Of a stretch of 64,000 nucleotides of DNA, positions 899-44,662 are shown piece by piece. The position numbers and the translations under genes were made by a program. Within the stretch, counting starts at the first letter, position 1; every line of letters starts with the position of its first letter. The DNA is from Candidatus Woesearchaeota archaeon. GTDB taxonomy: Archaea > Nanobdellota > Nanobdellia > Woesearchaeales > SKIA01. The notes under the pieces were generated by a model that ran no database searches, had not been told where the DNA came from, and worked only from the letters and a program-made list of their open reading frames with translations. The stretch spans positions 96,001 through 160,000 of the forward strand of contig JBJKRI010000006.1 of NCBI GenBank assembly GCA_046704725.1, read 5' to 3'.

Positions 899-1819
899 TT
901 ACGGATAGACGCTCATCCGGGTCTTGTAGATGACCTCGGGGACCCGCTCGAGCACGAAGGTGCTGCGGCCGTCCTGCGGGAAGATCTTGATCTCGAACTC
1001 GTCGTTCTCGTGCAGGACGTGGGATTGCTTGAGCTTGAAGTAGATGAAGACGGTCTCGCCGTACTCGAGCGCCGTGTCGGGCACGCCGGTGAGCGTGACG
1101 ATGCAATAGCTCGTCTCCGGACGGAGCTTGGCGAACGTGCACGGACCCTCTATCTGGTCGGTGATATGGATGGTGTTCGCGTCGAGCTGGTTGGCGGTGG
1201 TCGTGCCGTTGTCATCGATCTGGATGTATCCATAGACGGTGCCGTTGCCCCAGATGGGCAGGTCCTGGATATCGACCTTCGCGCCCGTGCTCGCGAGCGA
1301 CTTATTGAGGGGGATCTCGTCGGACAGGCCCGTCTCGCTCATGTTGACGATGAAATAGTAGGAGGAGCCGTTGTTGTAGAGCTGTATCTGGTCATTGATG
1401 CCGTCGCCGTCGAGGTCGCCGAACGGGATCCACCCGCTCGTGGTCGAGACGGGCACGCTGATGCTGAAGTTCTTGGTGACCGTCGCTGGATTCGATAACG
1501 ACGCGGAGTACGAGCCCGTGTCGGTGAAAAACGACAGGTACGTCGTCTTGAAGTTGATCGGGCCCGAAGCGGGCTCCGGACGCGTAAGGATCTGCACGTC
1601 ATTCGCCGTCTTCGCGCTGGTGTTCGCGTTCATGAAGACGTGCGTGATCTGCACCCCGTTGACGAGGCGGCTCTGGGACTGGGAGCCGACGATAAGCGCT
1701 TTCTGCTGCAACACGCCAGCGGTGCTGATGATGACGCCAGCGGCGACGGCGGCGACGAGAATGGTAGCGATAAAAATGATGAGGGTGCCAATACCCATTA
1801 TCGCTCTGCTGTTCATCAT
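899..1819 (-). CDS. Archaellin (ArlB/FlaB-type) with a large internal insertion
   Basis: Class III signal and hydrophobic helix SRA-IMGIGTLIIFIATILVAAVAAGVII, then LQQKAL; C-terminal LEYGE...EIKIFPQDG...VYP. Confidence 0.9.
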   Translation of the reverse strand: MMNSRAIMGIGTLIIFIATILVAAVAAGVIISTAGVLQQKALIVGSQSQSRLVNGVQITHVFMNANTSAKTANDVQILTRPEPASGPINFKTTYLSFFTDTGSYSASLSNPATVTKNFSISVPVSTTSGWIPFGDLDGDGINDQIQLYNNGSSYYFIVNMSETGLSDEIPLNKSLASTGAKVDIQDLPIWGNGTVYGYIQIDDNGTTTANQLDANTIHITDQIEGPCTFAKLRPETSYCIVTLTGVPDTALEYGETVFIYFKLKQSHVLHENDEFEIKIFPQDGRSTFVLERVPEVIYKTRMSVYP

Positions 1820-36956: not shown

Positions 36957-38804
36957 ATGAAAAAGACAGAGATACTCGTGCCCGACACGAGCGTGATCGC
37001 CGAAGGGCTTGTCACGACATACATCAAGGAGGGGAAGCTCTCCCCGAAACGCATCATCATCGCCGAAGCCGTGCTCAACGAGCTCGAGCACCAGGCCAAC
37101 CAAGGACGCGAGACCGGGAAGATCGGCCTCGAAGAGATAAAAAAGCTCCAGAAAGGAACGGGAAAGAAATACACTCTCGAGTACAAGGGCAAGCGCCCCG
37201 GAGAGTTCGAGATCAAGTTCAGCAGCTCCGGAGCGGTGGACAACCTCATCCGGCAGATAGCGCGCGAGGAGAAAGGCACGCTGATGACAGCGGACAAGGT
37301 GCAGGCCTCCGTGGCAGAAGCGATGGGCATACCCGTCGAGTTCGTGCGCTTCCACTTCGACGAGAAAGCCATCAAGGACCCGTTGAAAAAGCACTTCGAC
37401 AGCAAGACGATGAGCGTGCACTACAAGGAAGGCTCGCCCACCATCGCCAAGCGCGGAAAGCCGGGGGAGTGGCGCTTCGTCGAGCTCAAGGAGACGCCCG
37501 AACGAAAGCAGATGGAGACATTGGCGAAAGACATCGTCGAGGCCGCGCAGAAACGGCGGGACAGCTTCGTCGAGATAGAACGGCAGGGGAGCACGATACT
37601 CCAGCTCGGGCAGTACAGGGTGGTGATCGCGAAACCGCCATTCGCCTCGGCATGGGAAGTGACCGCCGTACGGCCCGTCGCACACCTGTCCCTCAAGGAC
37701 TACGACTTCCCCGAGAAGTTCCGGAAACGCCTCGAGGAGAAGGCCGAGGGCATCCTCGTGGCGGGCGCTCCCGGAGAGGGCAAGAGCACGTTCGCCCAGG
37801 CGCTCGGGGAGTTCTACGCGGGAAAGCAACGCATCGTCAAGACCATCGAGGCGCCGCGAGACCTGGTACTGCCAAAAAGCATCACGCAGTACAGCGCGTC
37901 GCACGGCTCGCCGGAGGAACTGCGCGACGTCCTCTTGCTGAACAGGCCCGACTACACCATCTACGACGAGATACGCAACACCCAGGACTTCCTGCTCTTC
38001 GCGGACATGCGCATGAGTGGTGTCGGCATGATTGGCGTGGTCCACGCGACAAGCCCTGTGGATTCCGTCTCACGCTTCATCAACCGCGTGGAGCTCGGCA
38101 TGATACCGAACATCATCGACACGGTCGTCTTCATCAAGGCGGGCGGCGTCGCCAAGGTCTACTCGCTCGAGATCAAAGTGAAAGTGCCCGCGGGCATGAC
38201 AGAAGAGGACCTCGCACGACCGGTGGTCGTGGTGACGGACTTCTACACGGGAACGCCGGAGTACGAGATATACAGCTACGGCGACCAGACGACAGTGGTG
38301 CCCGTGCAATCGCAGAAAAAGGGCCAGAGCGCCGTCCTGCGCTTCGCAGAGCAAGGACTGCGCGACTACTTCTCGCAATACACGGACAGGGCCGAGGTCG
38401 AGGTACTCTCGGAGCACAAGGTACGCGTGTACGTGCCCGAATCACGGATAGCCGCGCTCATCGGCAAGGGAGGCGGCAACATCCAGGAAGTGGAGAAGGA
38501 ATTAGGACTGTCCGTGGACGTCGCGTCATTGTCGGACTACAGCGGCAAGAGCTCCGCGAAGACGCAGTCCAAGAGCCCGGGCTCGCGGCAGATCGAATGG
38601 GAGGCCTTCGTGGACCGCAAGAACATCATCGTCGAGCTCCCCAACGATTTCGCCGACAAGGAAATCGACCTCTATGACCGCGGTGACTACGTCGCGACGA
38701 TGACCGCGTCGAAGAAGGCGCAGATCAAGATATCGCTCTCGTCGCCGATCGGAAGACGGCTGTCGAAAGTGATCGAGCGAGACAGACTGGAGATACAGGC
38801 GTGA
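36957..38804 (+). CDS. PINA-type ATPase (PIN + P-loop ATPase + KH)
   Basis: VPDTSVI PIN, GAPGEGKST, RPDYTIYDEIR, KH GxxG (IGKGG). Confidence 0.92.
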   Translation: MKKTEILVPDTSVIAEGLVTTYIKEGKLSPKRIIIAEAVLNELEHQANQGRETGKIGLEEIKKLQKGTGKKYTLEYKGKRPGEFEIKFSSSGAVDNLIRQIAREEKGTLMTADKVQASVAEAMGIPVEFVRFHFDEKAIKDPLKKHFDSKTMSVHYKEGSPTIAKRGKPGEWRFVELKETPERKQMETLAKDIVEAAQKRRDSFVEIERQGSTILQLGQYRVVIAKPPFASAWEVTAVRPVAHLSLKDYDFPEKFRKRLEEKAEGILVAGAPGEGKSTFAQALGEFYAGKQRIVKTIEAPRDLVLPKSITQYSASHGSPEELRDVLLLNRPDYTIYDEIRNTQDFLLFADMRMSGVGMIGVVHATSPVDSVSRFINRVELGMIPNIIDTVVFIKAGGVAKVYSLEIKVKVPAGMTEEDLARPVVVVTDFYTGTPEYEIYSYGDQTTVVPVQSQKKGQSAVLRFAEQGLRDYFSQYTDRAEVEVLSEHKVRVYVPESRIAALIGKGGGNIQEVEKELGLSVDVASLSDYSGKSSAKTQSKSPGSRQIEWEAFVDRKNIIVELPNDFADKEIDLYDRGDYVATMTASKKAQIKISLSSPIGRRLSKVIERDRLEIQA

Positions 38805-39857: not shown

Positions 39858-39865
39858 TTTATATA
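39858..39865 (+). promoter_or_regulatory. TATA box of the split-archaellin operon
   Basis: TTTATATA ending 26 bp before ATG 39891, consistent with a leaderless transcript. Confidence 0.6.
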
Positions 39866-39890
39866 TTCGGTTCCCCCGAAAAGGTCAGCG

Positions 39891-40166
39891 ATGCGCGCAG
39901 CGACACTCCTCATCATCATACTTGCCCTCCCGTTCGCCACGGCCATGACAGGCTACTGCACAGGGCACTACGTCGAGAAGGGACCGAACTGGGTGGACGG
40001 CCTCGTGCAGAAGGGCGACGTGTACGAGTACTACTGCGAACTACCCAGCACAGTGTCAGGCGACGATACATTCAACCTCCACCTGCAGTACAGCAACGCC
40101 GAGCTCACACAGCAATTCCTCGCGCCGCGCGTGGTCTATGGAACGACACTGGTGATATTCCCATGA
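39891..40166 (+). CDS. Signal peptide plus archaellin C-terminal-half-like domain
   Basis: Sec-type signal, then GLVQKGDVYEYYCELP...DDTFNLHL...APRVVYGTTLVIFP, parallel to the archaellin C-terminus. Confidence 0.7.
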   Translation: MRAATLLIIILALPFATAMTGYCTGHYVEKGPNWVDGLVQKGDVYEYYCELPSTVSGDDTFNLHLQYSNAELTQQFLAPRVVYGTTLVIFP

Positions 40167-40489
40167 ACGGCATAGAGCTCCTCGTTCTCCTGATAGCCGC
40201 GATCGGCATCACGGCGGTCGTCGTGCTCGTCTACGTGCAGGACGTGCACAGCTACCAGCTCAGCAGCAACCCGATACCCAAAGAATCGGATGTGCGCGTG
40301 GTCAACGTTATCGCGCAGAACATCAGCAACGGCAGCTTCAAACAGGTACGCATCAGCGTGACGACGACCGGAAAACTCGCACTGAACACGACACTCATCA
40401 CGCTGCAGACGGCGAACGGCTCTGCCGACCTGCAATGGCGCAACGGCACGCTCAAGCGGAACGTGACGACGGGGTTCTACACGCAATGA
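40163..40489 (+). CDS. Archaellin N-terminal-half-like protein
   Basis: NG-IELLVLLIAAIGITAVVV helix, VRVVNVIA, LALNTTLITLQTANGSADL; ATGA overlaps on both sides. Confidence 0.65.
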   Translation: MNGIELLVLLIAAIGITAVVVLVYVQDVHSYQLSSNPIPKESDVRVVNVIAQNISNGSFKQVRISVTTTGKLALNTTLITLQTANGSADLQWRNGTLKRNVTTGFYTQ

Positions 40490-42402
40490 AGCCATTGCTC
40501 ATTCTCCTCGCGCTGCTCGCCGCCATCCCCGTAGCGACAGCATTACAGACGACGCTCACAGTGACCGGATGCACCGCGACCATCTGCAACACGACAGAGC
40601 TCAACGCGTGGAACAACGTCTCGGGCATGAACATCAGCAAGAACGGCGCGGGGAACGTGAGCATGAGCCAGTTCGCGGGGAACAACCTGAGCACCATCAC
40701 GAACGTCTCGTTCCTCCTCTCGCACGACGGCGACTCGTCCATATCCGGCTCGTGGACCATCACGTTCTGGAACGAGACCAGCCAAGCGGCGTACTGCAGC
40801 ATGACCACGCCACTGGTGACAGCGTGGACGGTCGTGAACCTCACACCGACCGGCTGCGCATGGACGCCGGCGAAGCTCGCCGACCTGGGCGTGAACTTCG
40901 CGAACGGGGACACGGGAAAGCCCGCCACCGCGTATGTGGACTACTTCGACAGCACCGTGGTCTACTCTCCACCGCCCGTGCAGGACACGTTCGTGCGATA
41001 CACCTACGTGAGCCGGAGCGCGGCGACGATCGCCTGGGACACGAACAACGCCGCGAACAGCACCGTAGAGTACGGGACGACCACAGCGCTAGGGACCACG
41101 CTCACCAACACGAGCCTCACGACAAACCACAGCGCCACCATCAGCGGCCTAGCGGCGAACACCCTCTATTACTACAACGTGACCAGCTGCGACGGCAACA
41201 CCTGCAACACCTCCGGGCCGTACAACCTCACCACCTACCAAACTCTCCAAGTGGCGACGTGCAGCGGCGTGACCTGCTCGGTGTCCGGCGTGAACAGCTA
41301 CGACAATATCACGAGCGCGACGGGAACGAGCACGAACAACTACACGGCGAACTACACCGCCCTGGGACAATCCACGGCGACAATACAGAACATGACGTAC
41401 CGCATCGACTATAGCACGCAGAGCGCGACGGTCACATTGCTCTTCGAGAACGCCTCGAGCGGCACGCAATGGTGCAGCGCGACGCTGCCCGCGCAGGCGA
41501 GCATGACCTACGCCGAGGTCACACCGACAGGCTGCGCATGGACGCCGGCACGGCTCGACCAGCTATCGGTCGTCCAGGGCTACGGCGCGACGGACACGAG
41601 CAGCTTCGACTTCACGGCGGCGCTCGTGGATTACGTCTTCTTGCCGCAGATCAGCGGCGTGCGGAACGGGACGCTCAGCCTCAGTCAAAAACAAGTGAAC
41701 TGGACGACGCTCAACGCCGCGAACGGGACCATACAGTGGGGGAACACGACAGCGCTGGGCAACACCCTGACGAACACCACCTTTACGACCACACACCAAG
41801 CGACCATCACCGGGCTCTTGACGAGCACGACATACTACTACAACATCACGAGCTGCACGACGGACGGCTGCGAGACAGTCGGGCCCTACAGCTTCACCAC
41901 GCCAGCAGACCTCACACCCATCATCAGCAACGTGCAAGCGACGAACATCACCGACACCGGAGCGACCATCACTTGGACGACGAGCGCGGCGGCGAACAGC
42001 AGCGTGGACTACGGGAACACGAGCGCGTTAGGGACGAACGTCACGAACGCGACGCAGACGACGACGCATAGCATCGCCATTACCGGACTGAACACCACGA
42101 CGACCTACTATTACAACGTGACCAGCTGCAACAGCTTCGGCTGCAAAAGCGCGGGCACCTACAGCTTCATCACCGCGCCGCCCAAGAAGACATGCACCTA
42201 TATCTACACGCAGAAAGGCAGCGACTGGAAGCAAGGCATGCTCTCCAAAGGGGACGTGGTGCGCATTACCTGCCGGCTGCCGACGGCCATCCGGCCAAGA
42301 CAGGACCTCACTATCAAGCTGCTCTTCGAGAAGATCGAGTCCAGCCTGATGGTCCAGACGCCACGATTGTTCGTGCACGATCCGGAGGCGGTGTACCCAT
42401 GA
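40486..42402 (+). CDS. Secreted FN3-repeat adhesin ending in an archaellin C-terminal-half-like domain
   Basis: Sec signal; two TPTGCAWTPA domains; three FN3 repeats (ATIxWxT...YG.T.ALG...H...I.GL...T.YYYNVTSC); C-terminus GMLSKGDVVRITCRLP...TPRLFVHDPEAVYP. Confidence 0.85.
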   Translation: MKPLLILLALLAAIPVATALQTTLTVTGCTATICNTTELNAWNNVSGMNISKNGAGNVSMSQFAGNNLSTITNVSFLLSHDGDSSISGSWTITFWNETSQAAYCSMTTPLVTAWTVVNLTPTGCAWTPAKLADLGVNFANGDTGKPATAYVDYFDSTVVYSPPPVQDTFVRYTYVSRSAATIAWDTNNAANSTVEYGTTTALGTTLTNTSLTTNHSATISGLAANTLYYYNVTSCDGNTCNTSGPYNLTTYQTLQVATCSGVTCSVSGVNSYDNITSATGTSTNNYTANYTALGQSTATIQNMTYRIDYSTQSATVTLLFENASSGTQWCSATLPAQASMTYAEVTPTGCAWTPARLDQLSVVQGYGATDTSSFDFTAALVDYVFLPQISGVRNGTLSLSQKQVNWTTLNAANGTIQWGNTTALGNTLTNTTFTTTHQATITGLLTSTTYYYNITSCTTDGCETVGPYSFTTPADLTPIISNVQATNITDTGATITWTTSAAANSSVDYGNTSALGTNVTNATQTTTHSIAITGLNTTTTYYYNVTSCNSFGCKSAGTYSFITAPPKKTCTYIYTQKGSDWKQGMLSKGDVVRITCRLPTAIRPRQDLTIKLLFEKIESSLMVQTPRLFVHDPEAVYP

Positions 42403-42683
42403 GGAGCCAGGCAGCGCTCATATTGTTCATCGCGGGGATGCTCGTCGCGGCGCTCGCTGTCGGAGCGATCGTCCAGGTCGTGCGCAACCAACCGACCACG
42501 GCCGACGTCACGGCGCCGGCGAGCAGCCCGACCATACAGCAAGTCGGGGTCTGGAGCGTCTCGAACCAGAGCGCGCAATACGTGACGATCGACGTGGCCG
42601 GCTCGAACACGCCCGTCGCGCTCAACAGCACGCTCGTGACGTTGAGCATGCAGTCCGGCACGGCGAGCTACACCCTCTCCTAG
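42399..42683 (+). CDS. Archaellin N-terminal-half-like protein with class III signal
   Basis: MRS-QAALILFIAGMLVAALAVGAIVQ; GSNTPVALNSTLVTLSMQSGTASY. Confidence 0.75.
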   Translation: MRSQAALILFIAGMLVAALAVGAIVQVVRNQPTTADVTAPASSPTIQQVGVWSVSNQSAQYVTIDVAGSNTPVALNSTLVTLSMQSGTASYTLS

Positions 42684-42721
42684 GCACAACCCTTTTTAAC
42701 CACTGAGCATCACGGAGCGGT

Positions 42722-43999
42722 ATGCAGGACATCAACGCCATCAGGGAGCGCACGGACGAGGTCCGCGCGAGCATCCAGGCGCGGCACAAGGACGTATTGC
42801 CGCTCGTGGACAAGGCATTGAGCCTGGACGCGGAATGGCGACGGGTCAAGGGAGACTTGGACGAGCTGCGGCACGACCGCAACACCGTCTCGGCCGCCAT
42901 CAACACGGCGAAGAAAGAGGGCAAGGACGCGAAAGACCTGCTCAAGAAAGCCAAGGAGATACCCGCCCTGCTCAAGGCGCTCGAGGAGAAAGAGAGCGGC
43001 CTGCGAGAGGAGCTCGACAAGACGCTCAAGGCGATACCCAACTTCCTCGACCCGCAGACACCCATCGGGGAATCGGAGAAGGACAACGTCGTGAAAGAGA
43101 CGCACGGCGGGACGCCCATGCCGGACTTCGAGCCCAAGAGCCACGTGGAGATCTGCGAGGAACTCGGGATAGCGGATTTCGACGCCGCACGGCGCACTAG
43201 CGGCAACGGCTTTTTCTTCCTCAAAGGGGATCTGGCGCTGCTCGACCAGGCGTTGCAACGCTACGCCCTGGACATCATGGTGGGAGAAGGCTTCACGCCT
43301 GTGGTCCCGCCCTACATGATCCGGCGCGACATCGTGGACGGCGTGGTGGACATCGCGTTCTTCGAGGAGAGCATCTACAAGATAGAGGACGAGGACGCGT
43401 ACCTCATCGGGACCAGCGAGCATCCATTGGTGGGCATGCTGACCGGACAGGACGTGGACAGCAGGGAACTGCCCATCACGTTGTGCGGCATCAGCCCGTG
43501 CTTCAGGCGGGAGCTGGGCGCGCACGGCATCGACGAGAAAGGACTGTTCCGCACGCACCAGTTCCAGAAGATCGAGCAGATCGTCGTGTGCCATCCAGAG
43601 CAGAGCGACGAATGGTTCGACAAGCTCCTCGACATCACCAAGAAGATCTTCACCGGACTGGAGCTGCCGTGGCACGAACTGGTCATGTGCTCGGGAGACC
43701 TCGGAGACCTCAAGACGAGGCAGAGCGACCTCGAGGTGTGGAGCCCGCGGCGGCAAGGATATTTCGAGGTGGGAAGCTGCAGCAACCTGACGGACGCGCA
43801 GGCGCGACGGCTCAACATCAGGATCGTGCATCCGGACGGCCAGCGCGAGTATGCGCACACCCTCAATAACACCGCGCTCGCGACGAGCAGGGCCATGGTC
43901 GCCATCCTCGAGAACCACCAGCGAGCGGACGGCACGGTCACCATACCCAAGGTCCTGCGCCCGTATATGGGCAACAAGAGCGTGCTCGGGAAAGCCTAG
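42722..43999 (+). CDS. serS: Serine--tRNA ligase
   Basis: N-terminal coiled coil, GTSEHP, FRRE, GLFRTHQFQKIEQ, EVGSCSN, HTLNNT. Confidence 0.97.
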   Translation: MQDINAIRERTDEVRASIQARHKDVLPLVDKALSLDAEWRRVKGDLDELRHDRNTVSAAINTAKKEGKDAKDLLKKAKEIPALLKALEEKESGLREELDKTLKAIPNFLDPQTPIGESEKDNVVKETHGGTPMPDFEPKSHVEICEELGIADFDAARRTSGNGFFFLKGDLALLDQALQRYALDIMVGEGFTPVVPPYMIRRDIVDGVVDIAFFEESIYKIEDEDAYLIGTSEHPLVGMLTGQDVDSRELPITLCGISPCFRRELGAHGIDEKGLFRTHQFQKIEQIVVCHPEQSDEWFDKLLDITKKIFTGLELPWHELVMCSGDLGDLKTRQSDLEVWSPRRQGYFEVGSCSNLTDAQARRLNIRIVHPDGQREYAHTLNNTALATSRAMVAILENHQRADGTVTIPKVLRPYMGNKSVLGKA

Positions 44000-44038: not shown

Positions 44039-44662
44039 GTGGCGCGCGTACGATACTACACGTTCTGGCTGGCAGGAATCCTCGTCGTGGTCTTCGGGCT
44101 GCAGCAGATCGTGCCGTACCGCTTCGCCTGGCACGTCGGAGCGATCGAGCCGCAGTTCTTCATCTCGTTGTTCTCGCACGCATCGGTCGCGCACCTCTTG
44201 GGGAACCTGTTCGCCCTGCTCATCTTCGGCGGCATCCTCGAAGGGGTGATCGGGAGCACACGCCTCGCGTGGGTGCTCATCGCCGCCGGCGTCGCGGGAA
44301 ACCTCGCGGGGATCGGGACGTACTATAGCGTGCTCGGAGCCTCAGGAGCGATCTTCGGCGCCATCGGCACGCTCATCGTGCTAAGACCGCTCATGGTGAT
44401 CTGGCTGGACTTCCTGCCGTTGCCGATGATCGTGCTGGGCATCGGCTACGCCGTCGTGGAGACCATCGGAGCCATCGCGAACGCGGACCACACGGGGCAC
44501 CTCGCGCACCTCGCAGGATTCGCTGTGGGCGTCGTCTTCGGGCTCGCCTGGAGAAAGCAGTTCCCCGCGCCGCGACGGCTCAAGAGGTATCGCGACAGGA
44601 CGCGCGACAAGCAGATCGACGCGCAGCTCGACGAGTACGAGAAGCGCTATATGGGGGGTTGA
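44039..44662 (+). CDS. Rhomboid intramembrane serine protease
   Basis: HLLGN, GASGAIFG, AHLAG. Confidence 0.92.
   Translation: MARVRYYTFWLAGILVVVFGLQQIVPYRFAWHVGAIEPQFFISLFSHASVAHLLGNLFALLIFGGILEGVIGSTRLAWVLIAAGVAGNLAGIGTYYSVLGASGAIFGAIGTLIVLRPLMVIWLDFLPLPMIVLGIGYAVVETIGAIANADHTGHLAHLAGFAVGVVFGLAWRKQFPAPRRLKRYRDRTRDKQIDAQLDEYEKRYMGG

Follow-up and report, generated by a model that had tools for sequence, protein, structure and literature searches.

Archaellin halves encoded by adjacent genes in Candidatus Woesearchaeota: a putative two-polypeptide subunit

A 64-kb stretch of genome G000 of a Candidatus Woesearchaeota archaeon (G000:C6:96001-160000, referred to below as the window) contains a unit of four genes, A to D, which by sequence comparison are two halves of an archaellin encoded apart and arranged in two tandem modules, in each of which a gene for the protein's C-terminal half (C-half) precedes one for the N-terminal half (N-half). 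The interpretation developed here, which is given a probability of roughly 0.63, is that a conserved two-gene module, present here in two tandem copies, would make an archaellin-type subunit from two polypeptides, with A and B forming a plain unit and C and D a unit bearing an adhesin-like passenger. An earlier reading of the same DNA, the first-pass annotation, had placed the four genes behind one TATA-like box and joined them by ATGA overlaps, and all of the open reading frames (ORFs) and the three junctions (A-B, B-C and C-D) were recovered as it described them. The host genome comprises 1.18 Mb in 8 contigs and has a G+C content of 60%.

Archaellin halves in separate genes

Passages of the structural literature describe the archaellin head as a single 9-stranded antiparallel barrel with insertions between its strands (PMC6500986), and as a twisted barrel with a hydrophobic interior (PMC5517150). 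When alignments of the two kinds of protein were compared by hhalign with an alignment of full archaellins, using G000's own 212-residue archaellin as the template for numbering, the N-halves matched residues 8-113, a region that includes the pilin-type hydrophobic helix (probability 98.2%, E 3.9e-14), and the C-halves matched residues 140-212 (probability 98.9%, E 2.7e-17). N-halves compared with C-halves gave a probability of 0.15%, and the two are therefore different parts of the protein rather than duplicates. Alignment with the full archaellins of the genome and its relatives showed that the N-halves run from the helix to the strand before a variable insert and the C-halves from the end of that insert to the last residue; the break between them falls at the site of this insert in relatives' archaellins and leaves residues ~113-140 uncovered. 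Both the archaellin likeness of the halves and the position of the break had been proposed in the first-pass annotation, and are borne out by these profile comparisons and alignments. On this evidence, a complete beta-barrel head in one polypeptide with the helix is absent, as the N-half ends near residue 113 and the C-half begins near residue 140 in a separate gene.

The 212-residue archaellin of G000 aligns end to end with the solved archaellins 5o4u_A (E 2.5e-19) and 8rh5_Z (E 2.2e-19), and the N-half profile, when searched against the PDB, matched seven solved archaellin chains at E <0.01, the best of them being 5o4u_A (E 1.6e-8, chain residues 10-110 of 212). With A as the query against the 9438 ORFs of the genome, the next matches after A and C were other archaellin genes (E 3.1e-5, 7.7e-4, 9.1e-4 and 9.1e-3), and a search for homologous proteins with A alone returned A itself only. 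The two modules are also related to each other, with A paralogous to the final 69 residues of C (28% identity, E 5e-10) and B to D (30% identity, E 9e-7), and the genome contains exactly two N-halves and two C-halves. Homologues of the N-half are labelled 'hypothetical protein [Candidatus Woesearchaeota archaeon]' by their source. For one of them, P0081, the ESM Atlas model is poor (predicted local distance difference test, pLDDT, 0.41) and its closest feature clusters, at 0.86-0.87, are families of archaeal flagellins, a result to be taken as a lead only.

The first-pass annotation had also credited the C-halves with Sec-type signals of their own and, judged by eye, the products of A and C each have a basic start, a hydrophobic run and A-T-A ahead of the mature part. 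Gene B encodes a hydrophobic pilin-type helix, a short variable linker, the first barrel strands and a conserved tail (...NGT..(5)..GFYTQ-stop). There are 6 N-glycosylation sequons in B, 32 in C and none in A, and C contains eight cysteine pairs. The passenger of C spans ~545 residues and consists of two ~140-residue modules of no known family plus three FN3-like domains (Pur_ac_phosph_N, E 3.6e-18, and fn3, E 1.7e-8, over three stretches each); comparison of C with itself by BLAST found no off-diagonal repeat. The features of the window, and the second type of split pair described below, are collected in Table 1.

Table 1. Coordinates of the four-gene unit, of reference features in the window and of type II split pairs at other loci
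Feature	Coordinates	Strand	Description
Gene A	39891..40166	+	91 residues; Sec-type signal (~residues 1-19), then archaellin C-half only (~20-91), which is the whole mature protein; cysteine pair C23/C49
Gene B	40163..40489	+	108 residues; archaellin N-half; start overlaps the stop of A (ATGA)
Gene C	40486..42402	+	638 residues; Sec-type signal, passenger and terminal archaellin C-half
C-half domain of gene C	42178..42399	+	residues 565-638; paralogue of mature A; E 4.4e-26 against the C-half profile
Gene D	42399..42683	+	94 residues; second N-half, short type without the ...GFYT tail; start overlaps the stop of C (ATGA); E 1.4e-25 against the N-half profile
TATA-like box TTTATATA	39858..39865	+	26 nucleotides upstream of the ATG of A
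T5 run	42693..42697	+	10 nucleotides past the stop of D, ahead of serS
serS	42722-43999		gene downstream of D
Unsplit archaellin (in-window reference)	899..1819	-	306 residues; PF01917 E 1.9e-20; insert between both halves
Type II pair	L096:2908-4297	-	
Type II pair	L099:1471-2872	+	
Type II pair	L105:471-1887	-	
Type II pair	L109:1540-3016	+	
Type II pair	L111:1796-3167	-	

Conservation of the pair and reuse of the C-half

The C-half gene comes first and the N-half gene is adjacent, with an overlap or a gap of no more than 25 nucleotides, in 15 of 15 loci inspected across three families of the order (two loci each in G000 and G004, and one each in G001, G002, G003, G006, G366, the metagenome locus L092, G724, G726, G727, G728 and G729). 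The C-half led to ten of these loci and the N-half to the other five. Within the genus of the window, all four other genomes have the module at the same place beside serS: G004 has the same four genes as G000, G002 and G003 have the A-B pair only, and G001 has only a 686-residue passenger protein with a terminal C-half, plus an N-half. The cargo-less A+B pair is thus present in four of the five genomes of the genus, where mature A shares 50, 41 and 38% identity with its three counterparts and B 39, 33 and 31% with its own. Of the gene order described in the first-pass annotation, then, the C-then-N pair recurs at every locus inspected, and among these loci the four-gene set is seen in G000 and G004 only.

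Beyond the genus, the pair lies beside serS in G006, a member of the same family whose C-half is without the cysteine pair. In G366, which belongs to another family (f90), a gene for a 2515-residue protein is followed by one for a 121-residue N-half, and at L092 a 2611-residue protein is followed by a 119-residue N-half, with a serS fragment adjoining. Locus L092 was reached with the single protein P0085 as the query; single-protein locus searches for relatives of P0017 among genome contigs and of P0021 among metagenome contigs found none. The pair was also found in five further genomes of the family of G366 (G724, G726, G727, G728 and G729). Among 401 sampled genomes of the order, nine stand-alone N-halves in seven genomes were detected at E <=1.4e-25, the best full archaellin having an E of 1.5e-16, and in a class-wide sample of 401 genomes such N-halves occurred only in the three sampled genomes of the genus.

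Three other candidate arrangements were rejected. Matches of odd frame length in other genomes of the order (L053-L061) turned out to be complete archaellins, fragments at contig edges or, in one case, a broken gene; a circularly permuted protein fused by frameshifting is at odds with junctions that vary by locus (a 4-nucleotide overlap, a 20-nucleotide overlap, a 25-nucleotide gap); and B and C are not the true pair, as this N-then-C neighbourhood is seen only in the two four-gene loci. Separately, L060:1571-2104 (-) (G036:C15) holds an archaellin gene in pieces with an in-frame TGA, which is either a broken gene or a case of recoding.

A second split, called type II to distinguish it from the C-then-N pairs above (type I), has the N-half gene first and was present in 5 of 5 loci inspected in the family of G366 (G366, G726, G727, G743 and G731), with a sixth at a contig end. 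The type II N-half, of 124-131 residues, has a canonical archaellin leader and a full helix and ends just past a G-[YF]-[YF]-T motif. Its partner, of 308-366 residues, begins with a hydrophobic segment resembling a signal, which is followed by an insert that is Cys-rich or of DKDNDG type and by a C-half without the cysteine pair; a Pfam search of four such proteins gave no match. In G366 the two genes are separated by an 82-nucleotide spacer with stops in all frames and a TATA-like run. The retention of this independent split in all five loci indicates that fission of archaellin genes at this site has occurred, and been retained, more than once.

Some large secreted proteins also terminate in a C-half. 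With a profile of seven C-halves, a search of 1.84 billion representative proteins at E <=0.001 gave 71 proteins, which were sorted by local profiles and simple sequence rules. A Sec-type start and a C-half at the extreme end characterize 19 of them, ranging from 91 to 2595 residues, and 18 of these 19 have the cysteine pair, which is found in none of the 18 full archaellins and in 16 of 26 proteins that are fragments or unclear (including two of 2746 and 2400 residues); the other eight are unrelated repeat proteins. The passenger domains detected in 15 C-half proteins include MG2, FN3/Pur_ac_phosph_N, Big_7, Big_13, CARDB and Laminin_G_3. In a tree of the 71 C-terminal stretches, the Sec-type C-halves form four clusters on an unresolved backbone and the cysteine-pair label needs four changes; with 77 columns, this tree is too short to tell whether Sec-type C-halves arose once. 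The unsplit archaellin of the window is very divergent in it (end branch 3.12), and its insert contains a DLDGDG-type run (FG-GAP_3, E 0.077). Among unsplit archaellins, those of 500 and 512 residues at L055:1942-3441 (-) and L056:824-2359 (+) have inserts with weak metalloprotease-like matches below cut-offs (Reprolysin_5, E 4e-4 to 5e-4; Peptidase_M64, E 4.6e-4), so an archaellin insert may carry an enzyme domain.

Assembly and location of the proposed subunit

In the proposed mechanism, each half would be exported across the membrane separately, and the two would complete one barrel outside the cell with no covalent link between them. Neither half is expected to be able to close the barrel alone, so the halves would have to join after their separate export; this co-folding step is inferred from the single-barrel fold of solved archaellins and the strict linkage of the genes. 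The helix-bearing N-half would hold any protein that carries a C-half at the cell surface, and the cysteine pair, found only in split C-halves, would link the first two strands within the free half. The first-pass annotation had likewise proposed strand complementation after export, by which an adhesin would be plugged into a filament or its tip.

Several known systems share elements of this proposal. In donor-strand fibres, such as chaperone-usher pili and the archaeal threads and bundling pili, an incomplete beta fold in one polypeptide receives its missing strand from another; there, one strand passes between identical subunits, whereas here about half a barrel would be supplied by a distinct, dedicated partner. 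Like the archaellins themselves (ArlB/FlaB, PF01917), the halves belong to a genome with ArlI and an ArlJ-like platform, and both are homologous to that genome's archaellins, which match solved structures. They differ from archaellins in that the chain is divided between two polypeptides at the insert site, within the barrel, the C-half stands behind a Sec-type signal instead of a pilin helix and has a cysteine pair, the window's N-halves are without the usual leader and the distal helix segment, and all of the pieces fall below the Pfam cut-off. Adhesive modules are also carried by modular pilins, or by large non-pilin proteins of the PilC/PilY1 type that minor pilins hold at the tip (PMC10191384). 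In modular pilins, the module is fused to the pilin, whereas here it is on a separate protein with a Sec-type signal, and the proposed join is the completion of the pilin's own fold.

The nearest parallel in the published passages considered is pilin fission in Geobacter (PMC5174107; PMC9207759), in which adjacent genes, sometimes in reversed order, encode the N-part and C-part of a type IV pilin (a GSU1496-like truncated pilin and a GSU1497-like protein; PilA-N/PilA-C), and for which a filament with both proteins has been reported (PMC9207759, citing Gu et al. 2021). An adjacent-gene split of an ancestral filament subunit is likewise seen at all 15 type I loci and all five type II loci inspected. 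The Geobacter system, however, is bacterial and is cut between the helix and the beta part, whereas the cut here lies within the beta-barrel, the N-half strands matching 5o4u_A to residue 110; and giant proteins ending in the C-part, the counterpart of those found here, are not described in those passages on Geobacter. The split halves are akin to archaellins and not to bacterial PilA, and the Geobacter system is an analogue rather than a member of the same group. No split archaellin was found in the literature searched, in agreement with the remark in the first-pass annotation that it knew of no described equivalent, and the passages considered of a 2026 survey of archaeal type IV filaments (PMC13705601) mention none.

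A number of observations weigh against a two-polypeptide archaellin-type subunit. The split form is rare, being found in 7 of 401 sampled genomes of the order and in some members of one further-sampled family. The C-half profile gave nothing significant against PDB sequences, so that solved structures are reached only via the archaellins of close relatives, and A, B and D are all below curated family cut-offs. For PF01917, B scores 13.4 bits against a cut-off of 29.5 bits and A and D have no match; of 14 N-halves, five match at E <=0.1 (best 5.6e-4) and none exceeds the cut-off, and 15 C-half proteins gave no match at E <=1e-4. A class III (prepilin-peptidase) leader has a basic residue before a small residue at the cut. 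By eye, just 3-5 residues precede the helix in B (MNG...) and D (MRSQA...), neither of which has a canonical K/R-G/A leader of this class, and both are also without the conserved second half of the archaellin helix. In addition, D-type N-halves are shorter by the last ~14 residues (the ...GFYT tail), so a C+D barrel would be a strand or two short.

Some of these features bear on where the subunit would reside, and in the strongest alternative, which is possible though on balance doubtful, the halves co-fold but the unit never polymerises; the N-half would then be a membrane anchor with a flexible stalk, acting together with the C-half as a non-covalent sorting tag and receptor for secreted proteins. 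This alternative differs from the two-polypeptide filament subunit only on location, as the co-folding step is common to both. It accommodates the short, variable linkers rich in Pro, Ser, Thr and Gln that replace the distal helix segment of archaellins in type I N-halves, the length of C-half proteins (as many as 2746 residues) and the missing basic leader in N-halves of the window's genus. It has no obvious use for the cargo-less A+B pair, as a bare anchor, in four of five genomes of that genus, and sits poorly with the prepilin-type leaders kept by N-halves of family f90, the family of G366, and by that of L092 (RKA, RKG, KKGA, RRG, KKRA and KKA), and with an N-half hydrophobic helix that is still like the helix of the genome's archaellins.

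The odds between a complex that stays in the membrane and one that is fed into a type-IV-filament fibre are about even, with a slight lean to the fibre because the cargo-less A+B pair is conserved and the N-halves of relatives keep prepilin-peptidase-type leaders. Also counted for the fibre is the machinery that the genome encodes, namely ArlI, the ArlJ-like platform, a further two ATPase/platform pairs and a single A24 peptidase; counted against it are the lost distal helix segment, the lack of a canonical leader among N-halves of the window's genus and how large the passengers are. The G000 genome encodes three T2SSE/T2SSF ATPase/platform pairs in all; its ArlI scores 723.6 bits, above the 550-bit cut-off, whereas the ArlJ-like protein (426 bits) and a FlaK-like protein (63.6 bits) are both below their cut-offs. 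Two more type-IV-filament loci in G000, at C5:200484-206880 and C4:131014-140373, contain pilin-like genes with RRGQ- or RKAQ-type leaders, and pilin-like ORFs of 310 and 904 residues lie within them.

A tentative extension of the two-polypeptide proposal, possible but on balance doubtful, is that the C-half is a portable export-and-attachment tag: a free N-half pilin would capture Sec-exported C-half proteins outside the membrane, and a type-IV machine would lift the resulting subunit into a fibre. Such a system could yield adhesive filaments studded with passengers, or a pseudopilus that takes giant adhesins through the envelope. It might be used by host-dependent archaea to grip partner cells, with fragment complementation serving as the hand-over from the Sec to the type-IV-filament route.

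It is rather unlikely that the proteins act separately, with a self-sufficient C-half (for example, one that binds the envelope) and an N-half that is a small pilin or a stator like ArlF/ArlG, the two being neighbours by co-regulation only. The archaellum stator proteins ArlF and ArlG are small and archaellin-like, with an N-terminal helix and a beta domain, and 2 of 14 N-halves do match the ArlG model (best E 6.8e-4; 19.7 bits against a 110-bit cut-off), through the helix only (residues 3-47); the C-half profile also has a match in the twilight range to the FlaG soluble domain (5tug_A, E 0.18). The N-half profile, however, matches archaellins through the strands, and no PDB chain of ArlF or ArlG is among its matches at E up to 10. 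The two halves cover separate stretches of a single barrel, with no overlap, rather than being two copies of a domain, and each N-half has an obligate C-half neighbour at all 15 loci, with stop and start codons that overlap. The modules are also duplicated as units, and in the first ten pairs the identities of N-halves and C-halves co-vary (r 0.60, with 1 of 5000 permutations as high), a value that is inflated by relatedness and that shared descent alone can yield.

Decay of archaellin genes or assembly error, for which a precedent of sorts exists in the fragmented archaellin gene of G036:C15, is highly improbable, given that the two reading frames remain open at all 15 independently assembled loci, in three families and at identities of 25-50%, that the C-half gene stands ahead of the N-half gene, that signal peptides and a cysteine pair have been acquired by the C-halves, and that the N-halves have a common conserved C-terminal end. 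Frameshift decay had been argued against in the first-pass annotation from the gene order and the separate signal peptides.

Setting of the locus and implications

The four-gene unit is flanked by a PIN/T2SSE-like/KH ATPase, an LD-carboxypeptidase, serS and a rhomboid protease. The consensus TTTAWATA of the TATA-like box has four matches in the 64-kb window against 0.28 expected from shuffles, and no further match within 39866-42800; another such box lies at 1864-1871, by the unsplit archaellin. The T5 run after D is a possible archaeal terminator.

The second gene upstream of the unit, at 36957-38804 (+), encodes a 615-residue protein with PIN, T2SSE-like ATPase and KH parts, and look-alikes of this PIN-ATPase, recognized by visual inspection of their N-termini, are found close to the pair in G001 (L010:6868-8685), G006 (L095:4376-6424) and G366 (L093:1396-3186). 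Both serS and the PIN-ATPase are near the pair in G006 and G366, and this proximity may be plain synteny. A rhomboid-family protease follows serS directly at 44039-44662 (+), and rhomboid-like N-termini are also found downstream in G001 (L010:1187-1801) and G004 (L009:8647-9003). Elsewhere on the contig, a small GTPase gene (MMR_HSR1, E 4.2e-14) lies directly downstream of tandem archaellin genes at L011:9790-10419 (-), equivalent to G000:C6:169790-170419, and a similar gene follows an archaellin in G005 (L008:372-1007).

To our knowledge, the accepted view of an archaellin or a type IV pilin is of a single polypeptide, with the head domain after the helix. If the proposal is correct, a lineage of very small archaea has cut this head domain in two at least twice and routed the halves by different export signals, and a filament subunit would be assembled outside the cell from two chains. 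The module has no name in current family libraries: its small proteins are called hypothetical by the sources of their records, and for the large ones the only matches are to passenger domains. It could serve as a natural split-domain tag. It would also provide a small soluble pair for studying cell-cell attachment in uncultivated symbionts. Archaellins are reported to be highly expressed in situ by Woesearchaeota (PMC11606122). The reuse of one archaellin half to terminate surface proteins as long as 2746 residues would, if the proposal holds, explain how Candidatus Woesearchaeota fasten giant adhesin-like proteins.

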